IMG/VR virus record: IMGVR_UViG_2531839130_000007 | Span: 1 to 45,691 of that record | Reading direction: 5' to 3' (one strand) | Source of the DNA: a virus | Taxonomy: Duplodnaviria > Heunggongvirae > Uroviricota > Caudoviricetes | Length of the DNA stretch: 45,691 nucleotides | Shown here: positions 176 through 42,563 of the stretch, in pieces | Layout of the letters: each line of letters opens with the position of its first letter | How positions within the stretch are numbered: the stretch's first letter is position 1 | Made by a program: the position numbers and the translations under genes | Notes under the pieces: generated by a model | The model's input: only the letters and a program-made list of their open reading frames with translations | What the model was told of the DNA's origin: nothing | Database searches by the model: none

Positions 176-1120
176 ACGGTAAATCAGGCTTCTGGCGCAT
201 TACAGAAAAACCAGAACGGCGCAGATATTCCGGGAAAAGATACCTTCACCAAAAATATTGGTGCCTGCCGCGCATATAGCGCATGGCTGAATATTGGTGG
301 CGATAGTCAGACCTGGACAACCGCACAATTCATTTCGTGGCTGGAGAGTCAGGGGGCATTTAACCATCCTTACTGGATGTGCAAAGGCTCATGGGTTTAT
401 GCAAATAATAAGGTCATTACAGATACAGGTTGCGGAAATATTTGTCTTGCAGGTGCTGTGGTGGAAGTTATTGGCACTCGCGGCGCAATGACCATACGCG
501 TTACCACGCCGAGCACGTCCAGTGGTGGCGGAATTACTAACGCTCAATTCACCTATATTAATCATGGTGATATTTATGCTCCTGGCTGGCGACGAGACTA
601 CAACACGAAAAACCAGCAGCCTGCATTTGCTTTAGGGCAAACAGGAGGCAGGGTTGCAAATGATAAAGCTGTTGGCTGGAACTGGAATAGCGGTGTTTAT
701 GATGCAGATCTCAAAGACGCAACAGCATTAATACTCCACTTCAATATGAATACGGGGAGTTGCCCTGCCGTACAGTTCCGCGTGAATTACAGGAACGGCG
801 GTATTTTTTATCGTTCAGCGCGTGATGGTTATGGATTTGAGGCTAACTGGTCAGAGTTTTACACCACGACCCGCAAACCCTCTGCGGGAGATGTTGGTGC
901 ATACACGCAGGCAGAATGTAACTCAAGGTTTATTACAGGTATTCGCCTTGGCGGTCTGTCATCTGTTCAGACATGGAATGGCCCCGGCTGGTCTGACAGG
1001 TCAGGTTATGTCGTTACGGGTTCAGTTAACGGAAACCGTGATGAATTAATTGATACAACTCAGGCAAGGCCAATTCAGTATTGCATTAATGGAACGTGGT
1101 ATAACGCGGGGAGTATTTAA
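158..1120 (+). CDS. Tail-fibre C-terminal variable cassette (Sv-like); no independent start, frame opens inside the left crossover site
   Basis: Frame is open from the TAA at 155-157 to 1120 (first ATG at 377). First 25 codons are encoded by the inverted repeat and shared with the opposite cassette. Ends ...INGTWYNAGSI, the motif shared by the other fibre proteins here. Confidence 0.65.
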   Translation, partial: NLGLQETVNQASGALQKNQNGADIPGKDTFTKNIGACRAYSAWLNIGGDSQTWTTAQFISWLESQGAFNHPYWMCKGSWVYANNKVITDTGCGNICLAGAVVEVIGTRGAMTIRVTTPSTSSGGGITNAQFTYINHGDIYAPGWRRDYNTKNQQPAFALGQTGGRVANDKAVGWNWNSGVYDADLKDATALILHFNMNTGSCPAVQFRVNYRNGGIFYRSARDGYGFEANWSEFYTTTRKPSAGDVGAYTQAECNSRFITGIRLGGLSSVQTWNGPGWSDRSGYVVTGSVNGNRDELIDTTQARPIQYCINGTWYNAGSI

Positions 1121-1122
1121 TT

Positions 1123-1656
1123 ATGATGCACTTAAAAAATATTACTGCTGGCAACCCTAAAACAAAAGAGCAATACCAGCTAACGAAACAATTTAACATC
1201 AAATGGCTTTATACAGAGGATGGGAAAAACTGGTATGAGGAACAAAAGAATTTCCAGCCAGACACTTTGAAAATGGTCTATGACCATAACGGCGTTATTA
1301 TTTGTATTGAAAAGGATGTTTCAGCAATTAATCCGGAAGGCGCAAGCGTCGTTGAATTACCTGATATTACAGCAAATCGCCGTGCTGACATTTCGGGTAA
1401 ATGGATGTTCAAAGATGGCGTAGTGGTAAAGCGAACTTATACCGAGGAAGAGCAGAGGCAGCTGGCGGAAAATGAAAAGCAAAGCCTGCTACAGCTCGTC
1501 AGGGATAAAACCCAGCTATGGGACTCACAGCTACGGCTGGGCATCATTTCCGACGAGAATAAACAAAAATTAACCGAGTGGATGCTCTATGCGCAGAAAG
1601 TCGAATCTACAGACACTTCCGGTCTGCCAGTAACGTTTCCCGAACAACCAGAATGA
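1123..1656 (+). CDS. Tail fibre assembly chaperone (Tfa / Mu U-like)
   Basis: 177 aa; N-terminus [20 protein letters not shown] is paralogous to the ORFs at 1685..2212 and 42015..42563; sits directly after a fibre-tip cassette. Confidence 0.8.
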   Translation: MMHLKNITAGNPKTKEQYQLTKQFNIKWLYTEDGKNWYEEQKNFQPDTLKMVYDHNGVIICIEKDVSAINPEGASVVELPDITANRRADISGKWMFKDGVVVKRTYTEEEQRQLAENEKQSLLQLVRDKTQLWDSQLRLGIISDENKQKLTEWMLYAQKVESTDTSGLPVTFPEQPE

Positions 1657-1684
1657 GAGAAGGCCCGCTATCGGGCCTTAATTT

Positions 1685-2212
1685 TTACTCTGGTTTTTGT
1701 GGCCATTCAGGATTTGCCGTATCCACACGGCTGACCAGAACACTGTAGCGTTCCCATGCTTCCAGTCGTGTGCGTTCCTCGTCTGTTGCCATATTCAGCC
1801 TGACAGCGCGTTCCAGCGGCTGGATGACTGATTCAGCTTCGGAAAGCAATGCGGCCTTTTGTGATTCGGCCTGTTGTTGCTGTTCGTCTGCTGTATAAAT
1901 CCGCTTAACCACAGTTCCGTCCTTAAACATCCACTTCCCTGAATCATCGGCACGACGATTGACTGTTATATCTGGAATCTCAACGACACTAAAGCCTTCG
2001 GGATTAAGCGTTGAGGCATCTTTGGTTATGGCAACAATAATATTATTTTCGTCGTAAACAATCTTTATGGTGTCTTCCTGAAAGTTATTTACTTCCTCAT
2101 ACCAGTTTTTACCGTCTTCTGTATATAACCAGATAACATCAAAATTCTTTGTTAGCTGATATTGCTCTTTTGTTTTTGGATTTCCTGACTTAATATTTTT
2201 TAAATGCTGCAT
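1685..2212 (-). CDS. Tail fibre assembly chaperone, alternative copy (U'-like)
   Basis: 175 aa, [20 protein letters not shown]...; convergent with its paralog inside the invertible segment. Confidence 0.8.
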
Positions 2213-2215
2213 AAT

Positions 2216-3214
2216 TTACACCTGTGCGACGTTATACCATGTGCCATTGATGTATTTTTGTATTGGTCTGAAGATGGCTTCATCATCGCCATCTACTTCA
2301 CCAATGATTCTTAATCCGGTAATTGCGTGTCCGGCTTTTTCATAACGACCACCACGCGCCATCAATTGAACAACACGCGTACCCAGGCGAACATCTTTCA
2401 CATAACGGGAATCAAAGTTACCGTAATCTGAGGGATTAACACGACCTGTAATATTTATGGTTTTATTACTTTGAATACTGCCGGAGACAAAGCGCATAAC
2501 ATGGACGTTATTAGCATAAACATCCAGATACCCGTCGCCATTTTGTTTAAATCCCGTGTCATTATCACCCAAAACAATCGAGTTACCACCAAGAGCACTG
2601 GATGTTCCGATGCCCAGTGCACCATTCAATTGACCGCCAGATAATGACAACGCCCCAACCTCAGCAGCAGTCGGTTTAATGTGCGAACTGTAAATTACAT
2701 ATACAGTTCCATCTGTCAGGCCTGTTGGTTTATTCGCTGTATAAGTTGGTGATGTATGAATCGTTACACTGGCGTTACTGGTATAATCCCACTGAATATT
2801 AACACCTGTGGCGTAATTACCTATTTCTACATAAATGTCATAGGTATCACCTGATGTATTCACCCATGCAAAATTAGTAAATCCAATCGAGGTCCGTCGC
2901 CATAATGCACCAGTAATACCTTTTGGATTCCCATTTCCGGCACGCAGAACCAGCTCAGAGATGCCTGCTTGATGCGAGGAGCCAACGTTATACCCTGCGC
3001 CACCAATCAGGCTTATGTAAACCACGGAACTGGCTTGTGGCATTGTTACAGTTGCCAGTTTGAACCATCCAGCACCACCACTAAAAGACATGGTTGTTGA
3101 ATTTGTTGTGCCGATATTACGCAGGAATAGTTTTTTATCGGGAATATCTGCACCGTTCTGGTTTTTCTGTAATGCACCAGAAGCCTGATTTACCGTTTCC
3201 TGTAAACCAAGGTT
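2216..3214 (-). CDS. Tail-fibre C-terminal variable cassette, alternative copy (Sv'-like)
   Basis: Frame open from the right crossover site (stop at 3215-3217) to 2216 (first ATG at 3091). Contains ALGIG..ALGGNSI.LGDNDTG.KQNGDG.LDVYAN block shared with the fibre gene at 40501..42012; ends ...INGTWYNVAQV. Confidence 0.65.
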   Translation of the reverse strand, partial: NLGLQETVNQASGALQKNQNGADIPDKKLFLRNIGTTNSTTMSFSGGAGWFKLATVTMPQASSVVYISLIGGAGYNVGSSHQAGISELVLRAGNGNPKGITGALWRRTSIGFTNFAWVNTSGDTYDIYVEIGNYATGVNIQWDYTSNASVTIHTSPTYTANKPTGLTDGTVYVIYSSHIKPTAAEVGALSLSGGQLNGALGIGTSSALGGNSIVLGDNDTGFKQNGDGYLDVYANNVHVMRFVSGSIQSNKTINITGRVNPSDYGNFDSRYVKDVRLGTRVVQLMARGGRYEKAGHAITGLRIIGEVDGDDEAIFRPIQKYINGTWYNVAQV

Positions 3215-3369
3215 TTAGATAATGGCCGTTTCCGGCCTGCATGGCATGATTTGCGCTTTTAAACGGGAGATTCAGCGTGCTGATTGGCTATGTAAGGGTA
3301 TCAACAAATGACCAGAATACAGACCTGCAACGAAACGCTCTTGTTTGTGTAGGATGTGAACAAATATTT
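3139..3369. repeat. Right arm of the inverted repeat; contains the right crossover site and the first ~93 nt of pin
   Basis: Same alignment as the left arm; identity is lost left of 3139. Confidence 0.85.
3197..3222. other. gix/pix/hix-family 26-bp crossover site (right)
   Basis: Reverse complement of the left site, 55 bp upstream of the pin start. Confidence 0.6.
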
Positions 3370-3792
3370 GAAGATAAATTAAGCGGGACAAAGACTGACC
3401 GACCGGGATTAAAACGCGCTTTAAAGCGCCTTCAACAAGGTGACACGCTGGTTGTCTGGAAACTGGATCGCCTCGGGCGAAGCATGAAACATCTGATTTC
3501 TCTCGTCGGAGAACTACGGGAGCGAGGGATTAATTTTCGCAGCCTTACTGACAGTATTGATACGTCATCCCCAATGGGGCGTTTTTTCTCCCACGTTATG
3601 GGTGCCCTGGCTGAAATGGAACGAGAACTAATCATCGAGCGAACAATGGCAGGACTTGCTGCCGCCAGAAATAAAGGCCGTATTGGTGGGCGACCACCTA
3701 AACTAACCAAAGCGGAATGGGAGCAGGCCGGGCGTTTATTAGCACAAGGAATCCCCCGCACTCTGAATCACGGGCCATCAGTTATGCACTGA
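3277..3792 (+). CDS. pin: Serine DNA invertase, Pin/Gin/Hin/Cin family; C-terminal DNA-binding helix appears missing
   Basis: [23 protein letters not shown]...[24 protein letters not shown] matches remembered Pin/Gin nearly residue for residue, then diverges ([10 protein letters not shown]-stop) where the recognition-helix region should follow. GTG start. Confidence 0.8.
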
Positions 3793-18885: not shown

Positions 18886-19151
18886 GCATTACAGCAGCTC
18901 TTCTGTGAGGGGCTGCGATAATGCCAAAGCTCGTCATCGGCACCCGCCGCGCACCCAGCGCACTGGCCGATAGCGGGCTTTTTTATTCATAAAGCGAGGC
19001 TGTATGAGCGAGAAATTTTTATGCGTCCATCCGTAAGGGCAGAGCGAAAGGTGAAGCCGAGCTACGGGCGGCATTGTTTAAGCTTGCCAGAAAAGGGGAT
19101 GCCTTTGCCCTGCGCGAACTACTCAGGGTGGATAAAAATCAGGACTAACTG

Positions 19152-20243
19152 ATGAGCAGACCGGACTGGGGGGCGTTGCAGCAGGAGTATATTGCTGAAT
19201 ACACCCGCTCCGGTATATCTCCGGTGGCATGGTGTGAAGCAAGGGGACTGAATTACGCAACGGCCCGTCGTTACATCAAAAAACCTCCGAAAAATGCGCA
19301 GACAGAAATGCGCAAAACTGCGCAAAAAAGTGCGCAGAAAAAATCTGCGCAGACTGCGCAAAAGCAGAACGGAAAATCTCAGAAAAAAAAGCCAGTATCC
19401 GATGCGTGCCTGAATAAGGGCGACACGGAGGAATTTTCGTTCTGTCCCGATGAATTCGGCATCTCAGAGCAGCAGACGAAATTTGCGATGCTGGTTGCAC
19501 AGGGGAGAAAACTCGTTGAGGCATATCGCCTGGCAGGATACGAGTCAGAGGGGAATGCGGCCTACGTCACTGCCAGCCAGCTCCTAAGAAATCCTAAGGT
19601 TTATCGGGCTATCTCATGGTTCCGCAATCAGTACCAGAAACGCTATACCGCAGACCTAGATTTACTGGTGAGTCAGTTGATGGCCATTGTCCAGGCCGAC
19701 CCCAATCAGTTGGCACAATTTCGCCGTGTTAACTGCCGTTATTGCTGGGGCGAGAATCATCTCTACCAGTGGCGTGATATTGCAGAATTCGATAAGGCAG
19801 CAGCACAGGCCTCCAGAGATGGCAAACCCGAGCCGGAATATGGAGGCCTCGGCTTTGTTGATAACGCCATACCCAATCCGGATTGTCCGAAGTGCTGCGG
19901 TGAGGGAACGGGACAGCTTTATATGGCTGATACCACTCTGCTTGATGGGGATGCGCGACAATTATATGCAGGGGCAAAGCTCGGGAAATTTGGTGTTGAG
20001 ATCCTGCTGGAGGATAAGGCTGCCGCCCGGCGCGAACTTATCAAGCTGATAATGGCGACGAAAGGAGGTTCTGCTAGTGGTGCAACTGACAGTCGCAATG
20101 ATCTGGAGCTTGAAGGACTGAGGCTTCGCAACGAAAAGCTGCGCACTGAGATTGAAAACCTCAAAAAAGGCGTGGGTGGTGAGAATAACGAAATAATTAT
20201 CCACAACTCTCTGCCGATGCCGGGAGTGGATAATGTCGATTGA
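19152..20243 (+). CDS. Terminase small subunit
   Basis: 363 aa immediately upstream of and overlapping the large subunit; HTH-like N-terminus; contains a basic low-complexity stretch encoded by a TGCGCA repeat array. Confidence 0.65.
   Translation: MSRPDWGALQQEYIAEYTRSGISPVAWCEARGLNYATARRYIKKPPKNAQTEMRKTAQKSAQKKSAQTAQKQNGKSQKKKPVSDACLNKGDTEEFSFCPDEFGISEQQTKFAMLVAQGRKLVEAYRLAGYESEGNAAYVTASQLLRNPKVYRAISWFRNQYQKRYTADLDLLVSQLMAIVQADPNQLAQFRRVNCRYCWGENHLYQWRDIAEFDKAAAQASRDGKPEPEYGGLGFVDNAIPNPDCPKCCGEGTGQLYMADTTLLDGDARQLYAGAKLGKFGVEILLEDKAAARRELIKLIMATKGGSASGATDSRNDLELEGLRLRNEKLRTEIENLKKGVGGENNEIIIHNSLPMPGVDNVD
19295..19360. repeat. Array of six TGCGCA hexamers at 9-15 bp spacing inside the terminase small-subunit gene
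   Basis: TGCGCA at 19295, 19309, 19319, 19331, 19346 and 19355; the hexamer is its own reverse complement. Confidence 0.8.
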
Positions 20244-21561
20244 AATCTACCTCCCAAAACCTCATGAGGGGCAAATAGCTGCATGGACGGCGGCAATAGA
20301 GGAACGCTTCCACGCGGTATGCTGTGGTCGTCGCTGGGGTAAAACGGTGATGCTGGTGAACATCGCTACCAGTTTCGCTACGCGGAAATTTGCCGTTCCT
20401 ACCACCGGGCAACTTATCGCGGGTAGGGTGGGGATTTTTACCGCTCAATACCGCCAGTACCAGGAAATCTGGGATGAAATTAGCGCCGTTCTGCAACCGC
20501 TGATCCTCAGTCAGTCAAAAAATGAAAAGCGCATCATTCTCCGTAATGGGGGGCGCATCGACTTTTGGGTAACGGACAATAACAAACTGGCCGGGCGTGG
20601 GCGTAAATATCACGCTGTGCTGATTGATGAGGCCGCATTCACTAAATCGCCGGAAATGCTCGAGGAAATCTGGCCCCGAGCGATACGCCCGACGCTTGTC
20701 GATTACCGCGGCTGTGCGTGGGTATTTTCCACACCAAACGGTATCGACGAGAGCAATTTTTTCTACGCGATATGCCACGATGAATCCCTGGGATTTGTCA
20801 TGCACCATGCGCCAACTTCATCGAATCCGTATATTCCGAAAGAAGAACTGGAGGAAACGGAGAAAAAATCCGATCCGCGCGTCTGGCAGCAGGAATATCT
20901 TGCAGAGTTCGTAGACTGGTCCAAAGACGCGTTACTCGATGTCGATAAGCTGCTGGTGGACGGTCAACCAATTGAGATGCCGCCGTACTGCGACATGATT
21001 TTCGCAGTGATGGATACGGCGCTGAAAGGCGGGACCGAAAATGATGGTACTGGCGTGGTGTATTTCTCTTATGAGTCAACGTATTCGGACGAGCCAAAAC
21101 TGACGATTATTGACTGGGATGTGACGCAAATTAAAGCGTCATTGCTTCCTGAATATATCCCCGGCGTTTATGACAACCTCGAGCGCCTCGCGAAATTATG
21201 CCGTCCGCGTCTGGGCAGTCAGGGAATTTTTATGGAAGACGCCGCGATGGGGGCAATCCTCAACCAGAAGGCGGAAACCGAAGGCTGGGATATGACGCCG
21301 ATTAAATCGACACTAACCAGCAAGGGCAAAGACGAACGGGCGGTGATGGCATCCAGCTACCACTATCAGGGGATGTGCAAAATCGTCCGGGAGGCTTACG
21401 ACAAGACCGTTTCATTCAAACGTACCACCGCAAACCACCTCATTAAACAAATCGCCGGGTTCCACCTGGCAGACAAAGACGCGCATAAACGTGCTGATGA
21501 CCTTTTCGATTGTTATACCTATGGATTGATCATCGCACACGGTAATTACGCGGCGTTGTAA
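20233..21561 (+). CDS. Terminase large subunit
   Basis: 442 aa; Walker A-like CCGRRWGKT, Walker B-like HAVLIDEAA, nuclease-like C-terminal half. Confidence 0.85.
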   Translation: MSIEIYLPKPHEGQIAAWTAAIEERFHAVCCGRRWGKTVMLVNIATSFATRKFAVPTTGQLIAGRVGIFTAQYRQYQEIWDEISAVLQPLILSQSKNEKRIILRNGGRIDFWVTDNNKLAGRGRKYHAVLIDEAAFTKSPEMLEEIWPRAIRPTLVDYRGCAWVFSTPNGIDESNFFYAICHDESLGFVMHHAPTSSNPYIPKEELEETEKKSDPRVWQQEYLAEFVDWSKDALLDVDKLLVDGQPIEMPPYCDMIFAVMDTALKGGTENDGTGVVYFSYESTYSDEPKLTIIDWDVTQIKASLLPEYIPGVYDNLERLAKLCRPRLGSQGIFMEDAAMGAILNQKAETEGWDMTPIKSTLTSKGKDERAVMASSYHYQGMCKIVREAYDKTVSFKRTTANHLIKQIAGFHLADKDAHKRADDLFDCYTYGLIIAHGNYAAL

Positions 21562-21576
21562 AAAATCAGGATATTT

Positions 21577-23016
21577 TTGATGGCAGAGATCGAGATTACT
21601 GGCGGCCTCGGTTCAGCACTGATGCATATTCTTGAGGCTGAAGAAATTAAGCCGGGAACCGACACTGGCTATGAATTGTGTAAGCAGCTGTGGCAATTCC
21701 ATCCTCTGGGCGGAAAACTTGTCGAAAAACCCATACTGATGGCAATGTGTAAGCCGCGCCAGTATAACGTGGAGACAGATCCTGACGAGCGGGTTGTGCG
21801 GCGTTTTCAGGAGGTATGGGAACGTATGAAGGTCAACGAGAAGATTAAAAATCTGTTTTTTCTGTCTCGTTGCTACGGTGCCGCAGCGATCGGCGTGGGC
21901 ACCGACAGCGTTCCATGTCGTGAACCGCTTCCGACGTTCGGACTGACAGAAGATGACGTGTATATCAACGCGTGGGACCCGTTGAACGCTTCCGGTTCGA
22001 TGGTGACTGACCAGAACCCCAACAGCCCGTTTTTCCAGGAAGCCAATAAAAAAATGAAGATTGGTGGGAAAGACTGGCATCCGTCACGCACACTGAAAAT
22101 CTTCAACGGCACACCGATTTATCTGGAGTTTCAGAGTTCATCGTTCGGATTCACCGGACGAAGTGTGTTTCAGCGCGTTCTTTATTCCCTGAAATCCTAT
22201 ATCAACACGATGGAGGCGAATGATCTCGTCAGCCAGAAGGCAGGCGTACTGGTGGCTAAAGTTGTGCAGAACGGTTCGAAACTTGACGGGATCATGGCTG
22301 CCGCCACGGGACGAAAAAGGGAAAATGTCAAAGAGGCAAAAAATAAAGGTGTGCTTAGTATCGGGAAAGATGAGGACGTTACCTCGCTGAATTTACAAAA
22401 CATCGATGGCGCGCTAAATGCCGCCCGCGACAACATTATTTCCGATATTGCATCAGGTAGCGATGTTCCCGCGATTCTCATCAAGGAGGAGGCTTTCTCG
22501 AATGGTTTCGGTGAAGGAACTGAGGACTCGAAAGCTATCAGCCAGTATATCGATGGTGTGCGCCAGCAGATTGAACCCGTGATGGATTATTTCGAACGCC
22601 TGGTGCAGTACATCGCCTGGAACGAGGAATTTTATCAGTCGCTGAAAAATGATTACCCGGACATCATAACTGACGACTATAAAACCACGTTTTACCAGTG
22701 GCGACGTGAATTTACCGCGACGTGGCAGGAGCTGGTGGAGGAGTCGCCGGACAAACGCCGGGAAAGCGACAGTAAAGTGATTCAACAGGCGATAGCACTT
22801 TTCTCTGCCGTGTCGCCACAGGTTGATCCTGAAAACCGTGCCGCCGTCACTGAATGGCTGGCAAGCCTTGTTAATGCCACGCAAACCTATGGCGCAGCTC
22901 CACTCATCATTGATGTGGACGCGCTGGCGAATTATGAACCACCGAAGCAGGAGACGCCTGATGGCAATTTCCAGCCGGGCGGTGAGGAAGAAGAAACGGA
23001 TCAGAACGCTGTATGA
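21577..23016 (+). CDS. Portal protein
   Basis: 479 aa directly after the terminase large subunit; acidic C-terminal tail. Confidence 0.65.
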   Translation: MMAEIEITGGLGSALMHILEAEEIKPGTDTGYELCKQLWQFHPLGGKLVEKPILMAMCKPRQYNVETDPDERVVRRFQEVWERMKVNEKIKNLFFLSRCYGAAAIGVGTDSVPCREPLPTFGLTEDDVYINAWDPLNASGSMVTDQNPNSPFFQEANKKMKIGGKDWHPSRTLKIFNGTPIYLEFQSSSFGFTGRSVFQRVLYSLKSYINTMEANDLVSQKAGVLVAKVVQNGSKLDGIMAAATGRKRENVKEAKNKGVLSIGKDEDVTSLNLQNIDGALNAARDNIISDIASGSDVPAILIKEEAFSNGFGEGTEDSKAISQYIDGVRQQIEPVMDYFERLVQYIAWNEEFYQSLKNDYPDIITDDYKTTFYQWRREFTATWQELVEESPDKRRESDSKVIQQAIALFSAVSPQVDPENRAAVTEWLASLVNATQTYGAAPLIIDVDALANYEPPKQETPDGNFQPGGEEEETDQNAV

Positions 23017-42014: not shown

Positions 42015-42563
42015 ATGATGCACTTAAAAAATCTTACGGCACAAAACCCTAAAACAATTGAGCAATACCAGCTGGCACGACAGCATAAATTTTTATTGTG
42101 GCTGTTCTCCGATGATGGTCAGGAATGGCACGAAGCCCAGGAAAAATTTCAGCCAGACACTCTGAAAGTTATTTATGTTGAAACTGGCGAAGTGGTCTGG
42201 ATCGGAAAAGACATCACCTCAATCTGCCCGGAAAATAAAAGTGTGATTGAGTTGCCGGATATTACCGCTAATCGTCGCATTGAGGCGTCGGGATACTGGT
42301 TTTATCGCAATGATGAATTTGTTTTCGACCACAAACTTAAAGCGGAAGATGAGCGTGATGCACTGTTAAAACAGGCCAGCATCATGACCAGCGAATGGGA
42401 AAAAGACCTGCTGCTGGGATTAATCAGTGACGAAGACAGGGAGAAACTGAAAGCGTACCGCATTTACGCGAAATCGCTGCAGGCGATGGATTTCAACATT
42501 ATCACTGATAAAACCTCATATAACGCCATTGAATGGCCCGTCTCTCCGGAAGCCTCTTCCTGA
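42015..42563 (+). CDS. Tail fibre assembly chaperone (Tfa)
   Basis: 182 aa, MMHLKNLTAQNPKTIEQYQL...PDITANRR, paralog of the two chaperone genes in the invertible segment. Confidence 0.8.
   Translation: MMHLKNLTAQNPKTIEQYQLARQHKFLLWLFSDDGQEWHEAQEKFQPDTLKVIYVETGEVVWIGKDITSICPENKSVIELPDITANRRIEASGYWFYRNDEFVFDHKLKAEDERDALLKQASIMTSEWEKDLLLGLISDEDREKLKAYRIYAKSLQAMDFNIITDKTSYNAIEWPVSPEASS

Follow-up and report, generated by a model that had tools for sequence, protein, structure and literature searches.

A cluster of TGCGCA hexamers in a phage terminase small-subunit gene and its coupling to an N-terminal helix-turn-helix domain

The terS gene and its hexamer cluster

The virus sequence analyzed here, IMG/VR record IMGVR_UViG_2531839130_000007 (Caudoviricetes; 45,691 nucleotides, referred to as the window), carries a terminase small-subunit gene, terS, at 19152..20243 on the plus strand, and inside this gene lies an array of six copies of the hexamer TGCGCA (19295..19360, no strand assigned). 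The 363-amino acid (aa) product, TerS, consists of an N-terminal helix-turn-helix (HTH) domain, a basic linker and a Terminase_2 core. The initial annotation, which was made from the sequence alone, had named the host gene as a small terminase, and this identity is borne out by matches of TerS to Pfam PF03592 Terminase_2 (aa 123-311, E 2e-9, 38.6 bits with a curated cutoff of 26.1) and to PHROG 51 'terminase small subunit' (E 2e-69), as well as by the genes that follow: terL, encoding the large terminase subunit (20233..21561, plus strand; Pfam Terminase_6N; PHROG 2, E 3e-35), and a portal gene (21577..23016, plus strand; Pfam Phage_portal_3; PHROG 146, E 1e-73). The related protein of Klebsiella phi18.2 scored 101.9 bits against PF03592.

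Codons 1-43 (19152..19280, plus strand) encode a small three-helix domain, a putative HTH, whose third helix reads ...ATA-R39-R40-Y-I-K43. A single-sequence AF2 model placed helices at aa 6-20, 24-31 and 35-38 with a predicted local distance difference test score (pLDDT) of 80-90. The domain gave weak, sub-threshold matches to transposase-type HTH models, as did the N-terminus of the phage P1 small terminase subunit, PacA. Foldseek with the single-sequence model returned a best E of 0.97 and no significant PDB match, with HTH proteins at the top of the list, which lends weak support to an HTH-like fold; PDB sequence searches with TerS, the HTH profile and TerL returned nothing meaningful. The linker (codons 44-98; 19281..19445, plus strand) is rich in Lys and Gln and predicted to be disordered, and its DNA carries the array. 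In the same model aa 63-92 had a pLDDT below 50 and aa 45-100 were modelled without confidence. Because the array lies directly 3′ of the small helical domain and the linker is modelled in this way, we read the array as part of the coding sequence for a flexible, basic linker. The core (19446..20243, plus strand) comprises the canonical Terminase_2 DNA-binding and oligomerization region, a CxxC...CxxCC insert and a C-terminal tail, with invariant alignment columns. Since the core retains the canonical DNA-binding region, the N-terminal domain is an additional one.

The six hexamers start at 19295, 19309, 19319, 19331, 19346 and 19355, which gives copy-to-copy spacings of 14, 10, 12, 15 and 9 bp and places the array at nt 144-209 of terS, where it encodes the peptide NAQTEMRKTAQKSAQKKSAQTAQK. 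The initial description of six copies in 66 bp at 9-15 bp spacing is thus exact. The extended unit approximates A-N-TGCGCA-R-A with A-rich spacers between units; A accounts for 47% and T for 10% of the array's top strand, in which there are eight A-tracts. Across the whole window TGCGCA occurs 24 times, compared with 19.5 +/- 4.3 expected from dinucleotide-preserving shuffles, so the window is not globally enriched in the hexamer. Six copies in 66 bp, for which 0.026 are expected, correspond to a Poisson P of 4e-13, or approximately 2e-8 after correction for all window positions, and no stretch of that length anywhere in the window holds more than three copies of any other hexamer. We conclude that TGCGCA is clustered beyond chance, which is the local enrichment that the initial annotation had raised. 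Its description of the array as helically phased did not hold: the spacing is irregular, and the copies give a resultant vector length of 0.09 for a 10.5-bp period, with a maximum of 0.81 at 12 bp. On average the copies recur every 12 bp, and related genes show irregular spacings of 7-16 bp with a mean near 12.

TGCGCA is an FspI/MstI-type site and contains the HhaI site GCGC. The array could be a cluster of restriction or methylation targets, as the initial annotation had also considered, and might then act as a methylation-sensitive switch in the manner of the GATC hexamers of P1 pac or as a decoy. The hexamer is palindromic, and in P1 the pac hexamers are methylated by Dam, which regulates cleavage (PMC10028697). 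Outside the array, however, the 18 remaining copies compared with ~19.5 expected indicate neither avoidance nor enrichment, and the sister arrays of related genes described below are built from TGCGAAT or GTTTCCAC, which are not palindromes. Methyltransferase motifs of the N6/N4 (xPPY) and C5 (PCQxFS) types were absent from window open reading frames (ORFs) of at least 90 aa, in a motif search that is a weak test, and an annotated related prophage is without a methyltransferase. These results lend a restriction or methylation role no support, and we regard it as the least probable of the explanations considered here.

Constraint on the linker DNA

Five of the hexamers read xxT-GCG-CAr (x-Ala-Gln), and copy 2 reads aTG-CGC-Aaa (Met-Arg-Lys). 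When codons were resampled synonymously for the same peptide with local usage, six copies arose in 2 of 100,000 trials. Across 60 more distant genes the hexamer occupied all three reading frames (304, 73 and 31 copies), encoding A-Q, [LMV]-R and C-A, the last being TGC-GCA read as Cys-Ala; adjacent hexamer pairs, TGCGCAcTGCGCA, read Leu-Arg-Thr-Ala-Gln. Residue changes beside the hexamers in close relatives leave the hexamer in place: Met, Val and Leu keep xTG, and Ser, Thr, Phe, Pro and Asn keep the final T. Among 54 genes a T preceded 93% of the Ala-Gln pairs of the linker, compared with 50% elsewhere in the genes. The Ala codon GCG was used at 90% in the linker and 78% elsewhere, a weak contrast, since a few conserved positions make up most of the background, so that the contrast in the preceding T is the clearer of the two.

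In 38 unique, ungapped close relatives hexamers 1 and 3 never vary, hexamer 5 hardly does, and it is hexamers 2 and 6 that mutate. Nucleotide diversity (pi) is 0.034 in the hexamers and 0.061 in the spacers; for the DNA that encodes the HTH it is 0.022, and immediately downstream of the array it reaches 0.13, the linker being the most variable part of the gene among relatives. (A scan for relatives limited to one genome per species gave only two loci and was of no use for diversity.) At 63-65% protein identity, two relatives (L127 and L128) have six hexamers at identical spacing with different spacers and flanks, and in a third (L130) copy 2 is gone and another 9-bp unit has been added. The number of hexamers ranges from 3 to 9 among relatives in steps of 9 or 12 bp, with proteins of 351, 355, 359 and 363 aa. 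We conclude that constraint acts on the DNA and not only on the peptide.

These data bear directly on the view that the array is a by-product of a low-complexity Ala-Gln-Lys linker and replication slippage, with the hexamer reflecting preferred codons and having no role as DNA. Tandem Repeats Finder did report imperfect tandem periods of 10, 12 and 36 bp, the copy number does change by steps of 9 and 12 bp, Ala is commonly encoded by GCG and the linker is predicted to be disordered. Slippage and codon preference would nevertheless have to account for the use of three frames, for the 2 in 100,000 outcome of synonymous resampling and for hexamers that stay while their spacers diverge. They would also have to account for a motif that, as shown below, switches with a residue encoded upstream of the repeat, since nothing in a linker peptide would call for ANS in place of AQK repeats once Arg is replaced by Lys at residue 39. 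We therefore consider this explanation very improbable, and the frames, the resampling and the lower diversity of the hexamers likewise counter the concern, voiced in the initial annotation, that the repeat might be a codon-driven feature of the protein family without conservation at the DNA level.

One lineage has lost the HTH. In Rac-SA53 (L001:1412-2440) and two IMG/VR contigs (L053 and L054), a deletion has taken out the HTH and joined terS at hexamer 2 to the 5′ end of an M15-endolysin-like gene, and of the five hexamers retained two are intact and three carry point mutations. Decay of the hexamers after loss of the HTH is suggestive here and no more, because this is a single lineage and three mutations in 30 nt are not clearly above its overall divergence of 8%. 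The endolysin-terS fusion of this type sits just downstream of LT-IIa toxin genes.

Coupling of the array to the N-terminal domain

The association between array and HTH was recovered from both directions. A scan of 2.9 million IMG/VR contigs for TGCGCA-N3-9-TGCGCA-N3-9-TGCGCA, blind to protein, yielded among the matches listed, peptide tandem repeats aside, mostly 4-7 hexamers at aa 46-80 of ORFs of 290-360 aa. The peptide preceding the listed arrays ends in ...GLNY.[TS]ARRYIKKP, which is the same N-terminal domain, found on many different cores. Named phages that bear the array include Klebsiella phage ST974-OXA48phi18.2, with six copies, and Escherichia phage PhiR12_3, with seven copies and a 933W-like core. 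In the other direction, genes were selected by residues 1-34 of the HTH only, with helix 3 and the array excluded, which gave at least 578 IMG/VR loci, from which 65 unique genes were analyzed.

The genes selected in this way fall into two classes by helix 3. Those with A-R-R-[YH]-[IV]-K (54 of 65) have a mean of 5.2 TGCGCA (minimum 2) and 0.1 TGCGAA/TTCGCA, and those with A-K-R-Y-I-K (the other 11) have a mean of 0.1 TGCGCA and 6.0 TGCGAA/TTCGCA (minimum 4), often as the palindrome TGCGAATTCGCA. Members of this sister AKRYIK class, with Lys at the position of R39 and arrays of TGCGAAT or TGCGAATTCGCA, include Yersinia vB_YenM_21.09 (L364:1501-1860), Klebsiella RothC (L365:455-800), the loci L380, L385 and L494, and others. 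In a reciprocal blind scan for TGCGAAT arrays, 16 of 119 matches were relevant, that is, linked to the HTH, and all of these had AKRY or AKRH in helix 3; the rest were mostly tandem Ala-Asn peptide repeats of giant viruses. The motifs differ at one position (TGCG-C-A compared with TGCG-A-A) and the proteins at a single residue in what is presumed to be the recognition helix, R39 in the window.

A neighbor-joining tree of nt 1-102 interleaved the Arg and Lys classes with at least nine parsimony changes, and several Lys-class genes had an Arg-class gene as nearest neighbor at 2-4% divergence. Because the classes interleave with at least this number of changes, helix 3 and the array have stayed linked through repeated exchange. 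We conclude that the array is coupled physically and evolutionarily to the HTH, and that its motif switches with one residue of helix 3.

The N-terminal part of the gene also behaves as an exchangeable module. In alignments with relatives that bear other N-termini, the module ends just before P99-DEFGIS, beyond which the core is nearly invariant, and the other N-termini carry repeats of their own. On the same TerS core, a module beginning MARTNWGEE... has TCGCGAA(TTCG) three times in its linker (L088:2730-3100), and a module beginning MKESDWKII... (pPE4, L004:1207-1520; also L087) has GTTTCCAC twice, followed by two inverted GTGGAAA(C); each of the two modules was found in one complete E. coli genome only. 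The pPE4 record (L004, PP818812) is labelled 'Actinobacillus phage vB_Apl-pPE4'. With the window it shares 98.9% identity in TerL, and the 5′ module of its terS matches a pig E. coli chromosome (HNSQ2209) at 100% identity; on these sequence identities the stated Actinobacillus host appears doubtful.

The Shiga-toxin phage 933W provides a further pair. Its TerS (L0112; AF125520; L366:1501-2304) has an N-terminal domain of this HTH family, 39.5% identical across aa 1-43, with ARTRIK as helix 3. At the same position as in the window, at approximately nt 130-180 of L0112, it carries CGATCATGAAAT four times with a 12-bp period, encoding IDHEIDHKTDHEIDH. With its GATC and 12-bp period this repeat resembles the P1 pac hexamers. 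The motif, helix 3, TerS core and TerL all differ from those of the window. A TGTGCA/TGCGCA pair lies ~90 bp beyond the 933W array. A mapped pac site of 933W was not found in the literature searched.

A candidate packaging-initiation site

The closest parallel to the array is the pac site of P1, which lies inside pacA, comprises seven TGATCA/G hexamers with Dam sites and has been proven by experiment (PMC10028697). In the pacA sequence we located the hexamers at nt 194-233 (HEX4) and 324-352 (HEX3), with spacings of 7, 12 and 15 and of 12 and 11, in two frames. In P1 as in the window, several 6-bp TG-nn-CA elements are embedded in the small-subunit gene, some dozens of codons past an N-terminal HTH, and are spaced irregularly (7-15 bp in P1, 9-15 bp here) in more than one frame. 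The HTH domains also align at the profile level: with hhalign, a profile of 25 N-termini matched aa 3-40 of PacA at a probability of 92.8% and an E of 4e-7 over 38 ungapped columns, and in this alignment the PacA N-terminus reads W3...NLNPNTARRYLR40. The remainder of PacA is unrelated to the Terminase_2 core present here, and TGCGCA is without the GATC through which Dam exerts control in P1.

Taking these results together, we put at roughly 0.68 the probability that the six TGCGCA are the cognate sites of the HTH encoded by the same gene and form the recognition element of a packaging-initiation site resembling P1 pac. In this reading, binding by the HTH, a role in packaging, and the position and kind of cut (headful pac or cos ends) are inferred. 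Conservation of the array as DNA, its co-variation with helix 3 and the profile-level link to PacA and P1 pac favor the packaging site proposed in the initial annotation, of which a headful pac site would be one candidate form. The searchable literature yielded no account of either the TGCGCA and TGCGAA arrays or a PacA-like HTH on Terminase_2 proteins.

Co-variation speaks for cognate binding and not for the purpose of that binding. The array could instead be an operator, bound by this HTH or by a different HTH protein so that the late or terminase operon is autoregulated at the level of transcription or translation; among HTH proteins, those that recognize short repeats are as a rule regulatory (PMC4737164). 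On the other hand, the HTH is fused to a small terminase in every case seen, on at least three different TerS cores, and the pairing of P1 PacA with its hexamers, the sole homologous arrangement to have been characterized, is one of packaging (PMC10028697). An operator of six to nine sites would also be oddly placed within a coding region, 140 nt past the start codon. We consider an operator improbable and continue to favor recognition of the array for packaging.

Several other small terminases share parts of this arrangement. The G1P protein of SPP1/SF6 has a core of the same Pfam family, and the SPP1/SF6 pac site overlaps the 5′ end of the small-terminase gene and has direct repeats in AT-rich DNA with GC punctuation (PMC4737164), so that repeats in the small-terminase gene and AT-rich DNA punctuated by GC are common to both systems. 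In SF6, however, DNA binding by the canonical domain is weak and lacks specificity, and this domain does not use the box repeats as its sites (PMC4737164). The window differs by its additional N-terminal HTH, and the co-variation of helix 3 with the repeat motif therefore argues for sequence-specific reading, unlike in SF6.

In phage lambda, cosB consists of repeated small-subunit binding elements beside the gene for gpNu1 and is read by an N-terminal (winged) HTH. It resembles the window in having several small-subunit binding elements next to or in the small-subunit gene together with an N-terminal HTH, and differs in that its R sites are longer, are arranged around a site for IHF just outside the coding region and serve a system with cohesive ends. 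The pac site of P22 is a single asymmetric site of ~22 bp and not a hexamer array. A packaging start within the small-terminase gene, as proposed for the window, is found in P22 and in P22-like phages such as Gally of E. coli LF82, in which a peak of virion-DNA coverage places the start in termS (PMC9928086). We rejected the Gally peak as a match, as its TerS is a P22-like protein of 140 aa from a family unrelated to that of the window.

A number of observations weigh against a P1 pac-like site. P1 has two clusters of hexamers (four and three) flanking an IHF site and the cut, whereas the window has one cluster of six; a second cluster, exact or with one mismatch, was not found within 400 bp on either side, an IHF consensus was not seen beside the array by eye, no formal scan having been run, and no candidate cleavage site was identified. 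The homology to PacA is a 38-column profile match with a pairwise BLASTP E of 0.11, and because the pairwise match is weak we treat the support for a PacA-like HTH as moderate. The sequences that co-vary are phylogenetically related, and simple exact tests therefore overstate significance. The precedent of SF6/SPP1, the best-studied Terminase_2 system, in which the pac repeats are not specific sites for the canonical DNA-binding domain (PMC4737164), belongs here as well. The P1 site is proven by experiment, and for array-bearing phages the literature searched yielded no virion ends, coverage steps, footprints, gel shifts or transduction assays.

The end calls made for Klebsiella phages also bear on the kind of site, and they conflict. 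RothD, a species-mate of RothC, was called COS(5′) by PhageTerm (KlebPhaCol table). RothC carries the sister TGCGAAT array, and its TerL is 59% identical to that of the window; Klebsiella Chronis, Pantoea PdC23 and the Yersinia vB_YenM phages have a TerL at the same identity. The array could accordingly be the TerS-binding subsite of a cos-type site, comparable to lambda cosB with its repeated small-subunit sites beside the small-subunit gene, in a phage with defined cohesive ends and a precise cut at each genome unit. Yet RothC itself was returned as 'undetermined; permuted', and both calls come from Nextera tagmentation libraries, which are poor for calling ends. P1 and 933W, the two relatives of the HTH module that have been characterized, are headful packagers with terminally redundant DNA and are capable of transduction, 933W being a generalized transducer (PMC10028697; PMC3752737), and the TerL of the window has a T4-type N-terminal domain. 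We consider a cos-type site unlikely, although it is the most plausible of the alternatives to a P1 pac-like site. Were the ends cohesive in this TerL clade, the array would be a cosB-like subsite, and the kind of cut would change and the recognition role would not.

If the array is indeed recognized for packaging, a mechanism can be proposed. TerS would oligomerize through its core, and the resulting ring would present several HTH domains on tethers of ~55 residues. Several HTH domains of one ring could then bind neighboring hexamers, with avidity giving both specificity and affinity, and multivalent binding of this kind would tolerate irregular spacing and a varying number of copies. The A-rich, GC-punctuated DNA might be wrapped or held on the ring by the canonical Terminase_2 domains, and TerL, the nuclease and ATPase partner, would be placed for a first cut nearby, with packaging proceeding rightwards.

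Genomic context and implications

The terS gene is that of a Rac-like prophage. Upstream of it is a lysis cassette with a holin and an M15 endolysin, and downstream of terL and the portal gene are head and tail-sheath genes; a near-identical annotated prophage is a full-length Rac-like element with recE, kilR and ydaT. The ~40 nt directly 5′ of the terS start (19100-19151; tactcagggtggataaaaatcaggactaactgATG) are kept even at 63% TerS identity and may represent the 3′ end of a small upstream gene with overlapping stop and start, or a part of the packaging region. Within the TerS core, the cysteines C195, C198, C245, C248 and C249 (19734-19898, aa 195-249) form the invariant CxxC...CxxCC insert (NCRYCWGE ... 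NPDCPKCCGEG), which has a zinc-ribbon-like look and in relatives weakly matches DnaJ_CXXCXGXG. The C-terminal ~70 aa of TerS exchange along with the type of TerL. In several E. coli genomes RefSeq/PGAP labels the portal protein (window 21577-23016; L085:22429-23865) as 'anti-CBASS protein Acb1 family protein', which is either a mis-annotation or an unrecognized fused domain. Toward the window ends, tail-fiber and assembly genes occur in both orientations (377-3792; 1123-1656 on the plus strand, 1685-2212 and 2216-3091 on the minus strand) and adjoin a truncated Pin/Hin-like invertase at 3484-3792, which suggests an invertible host-range segment. A similar tail-fiber-assembly gene recurs at 42015-42563, followed by a gene for a 1035-aa fiber that runs to the window end (45691).

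The exchange of N-terminal modules also allows a more tentative proposal, which we consider somewhat less likely to be true than not. The HTH and the array in its own linker may form a portable 'packaging address' cassette, in which R/K39 would retarget the terminase from TGCGCA to TGCGAA(T) and which would recombine in one piece onto a variety of TerS cores and types of TerL, including Rac-like, Klebsiella/Yersinia 'Felixviridae'-like and 933W-like ones. If this is true, such a private cassette would give co-resident prophages packaging signals that do not cross-react.

How small terminases choose viral DNA is poorly understood, and the best structural models, SF6/SPP1 and P22, show weak binding with little sequence preference. 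The arrangement described here offers a recognition system that can be read from sequence: a short hexamer, a small tethered HTH, a one-residue specificity switch and several orthogonal pairs of motif and HTH on one scaffold. It is also common, as terS was matched in 895 of 5426 complete E. coli genomes (~16%) and the HTH occurs at the IMG/VR loci counted above, so that the proposed variant of the P1 site is spread over hundreds of enterobacterial phages. It reaches into Shiga-toxin phages such as 933W, which transduce. If confirmed, the array would predict where lateral and generalized transduction start in these prophages and would provide a compact element (~70 bp plus ~45 aa) for directing cargo into capsids. 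Should the cassette proposal also prove true, it would represent a natural minimal specificity code for DNA recognition by small terminases and a handle with which capsid packaging may be engineered.

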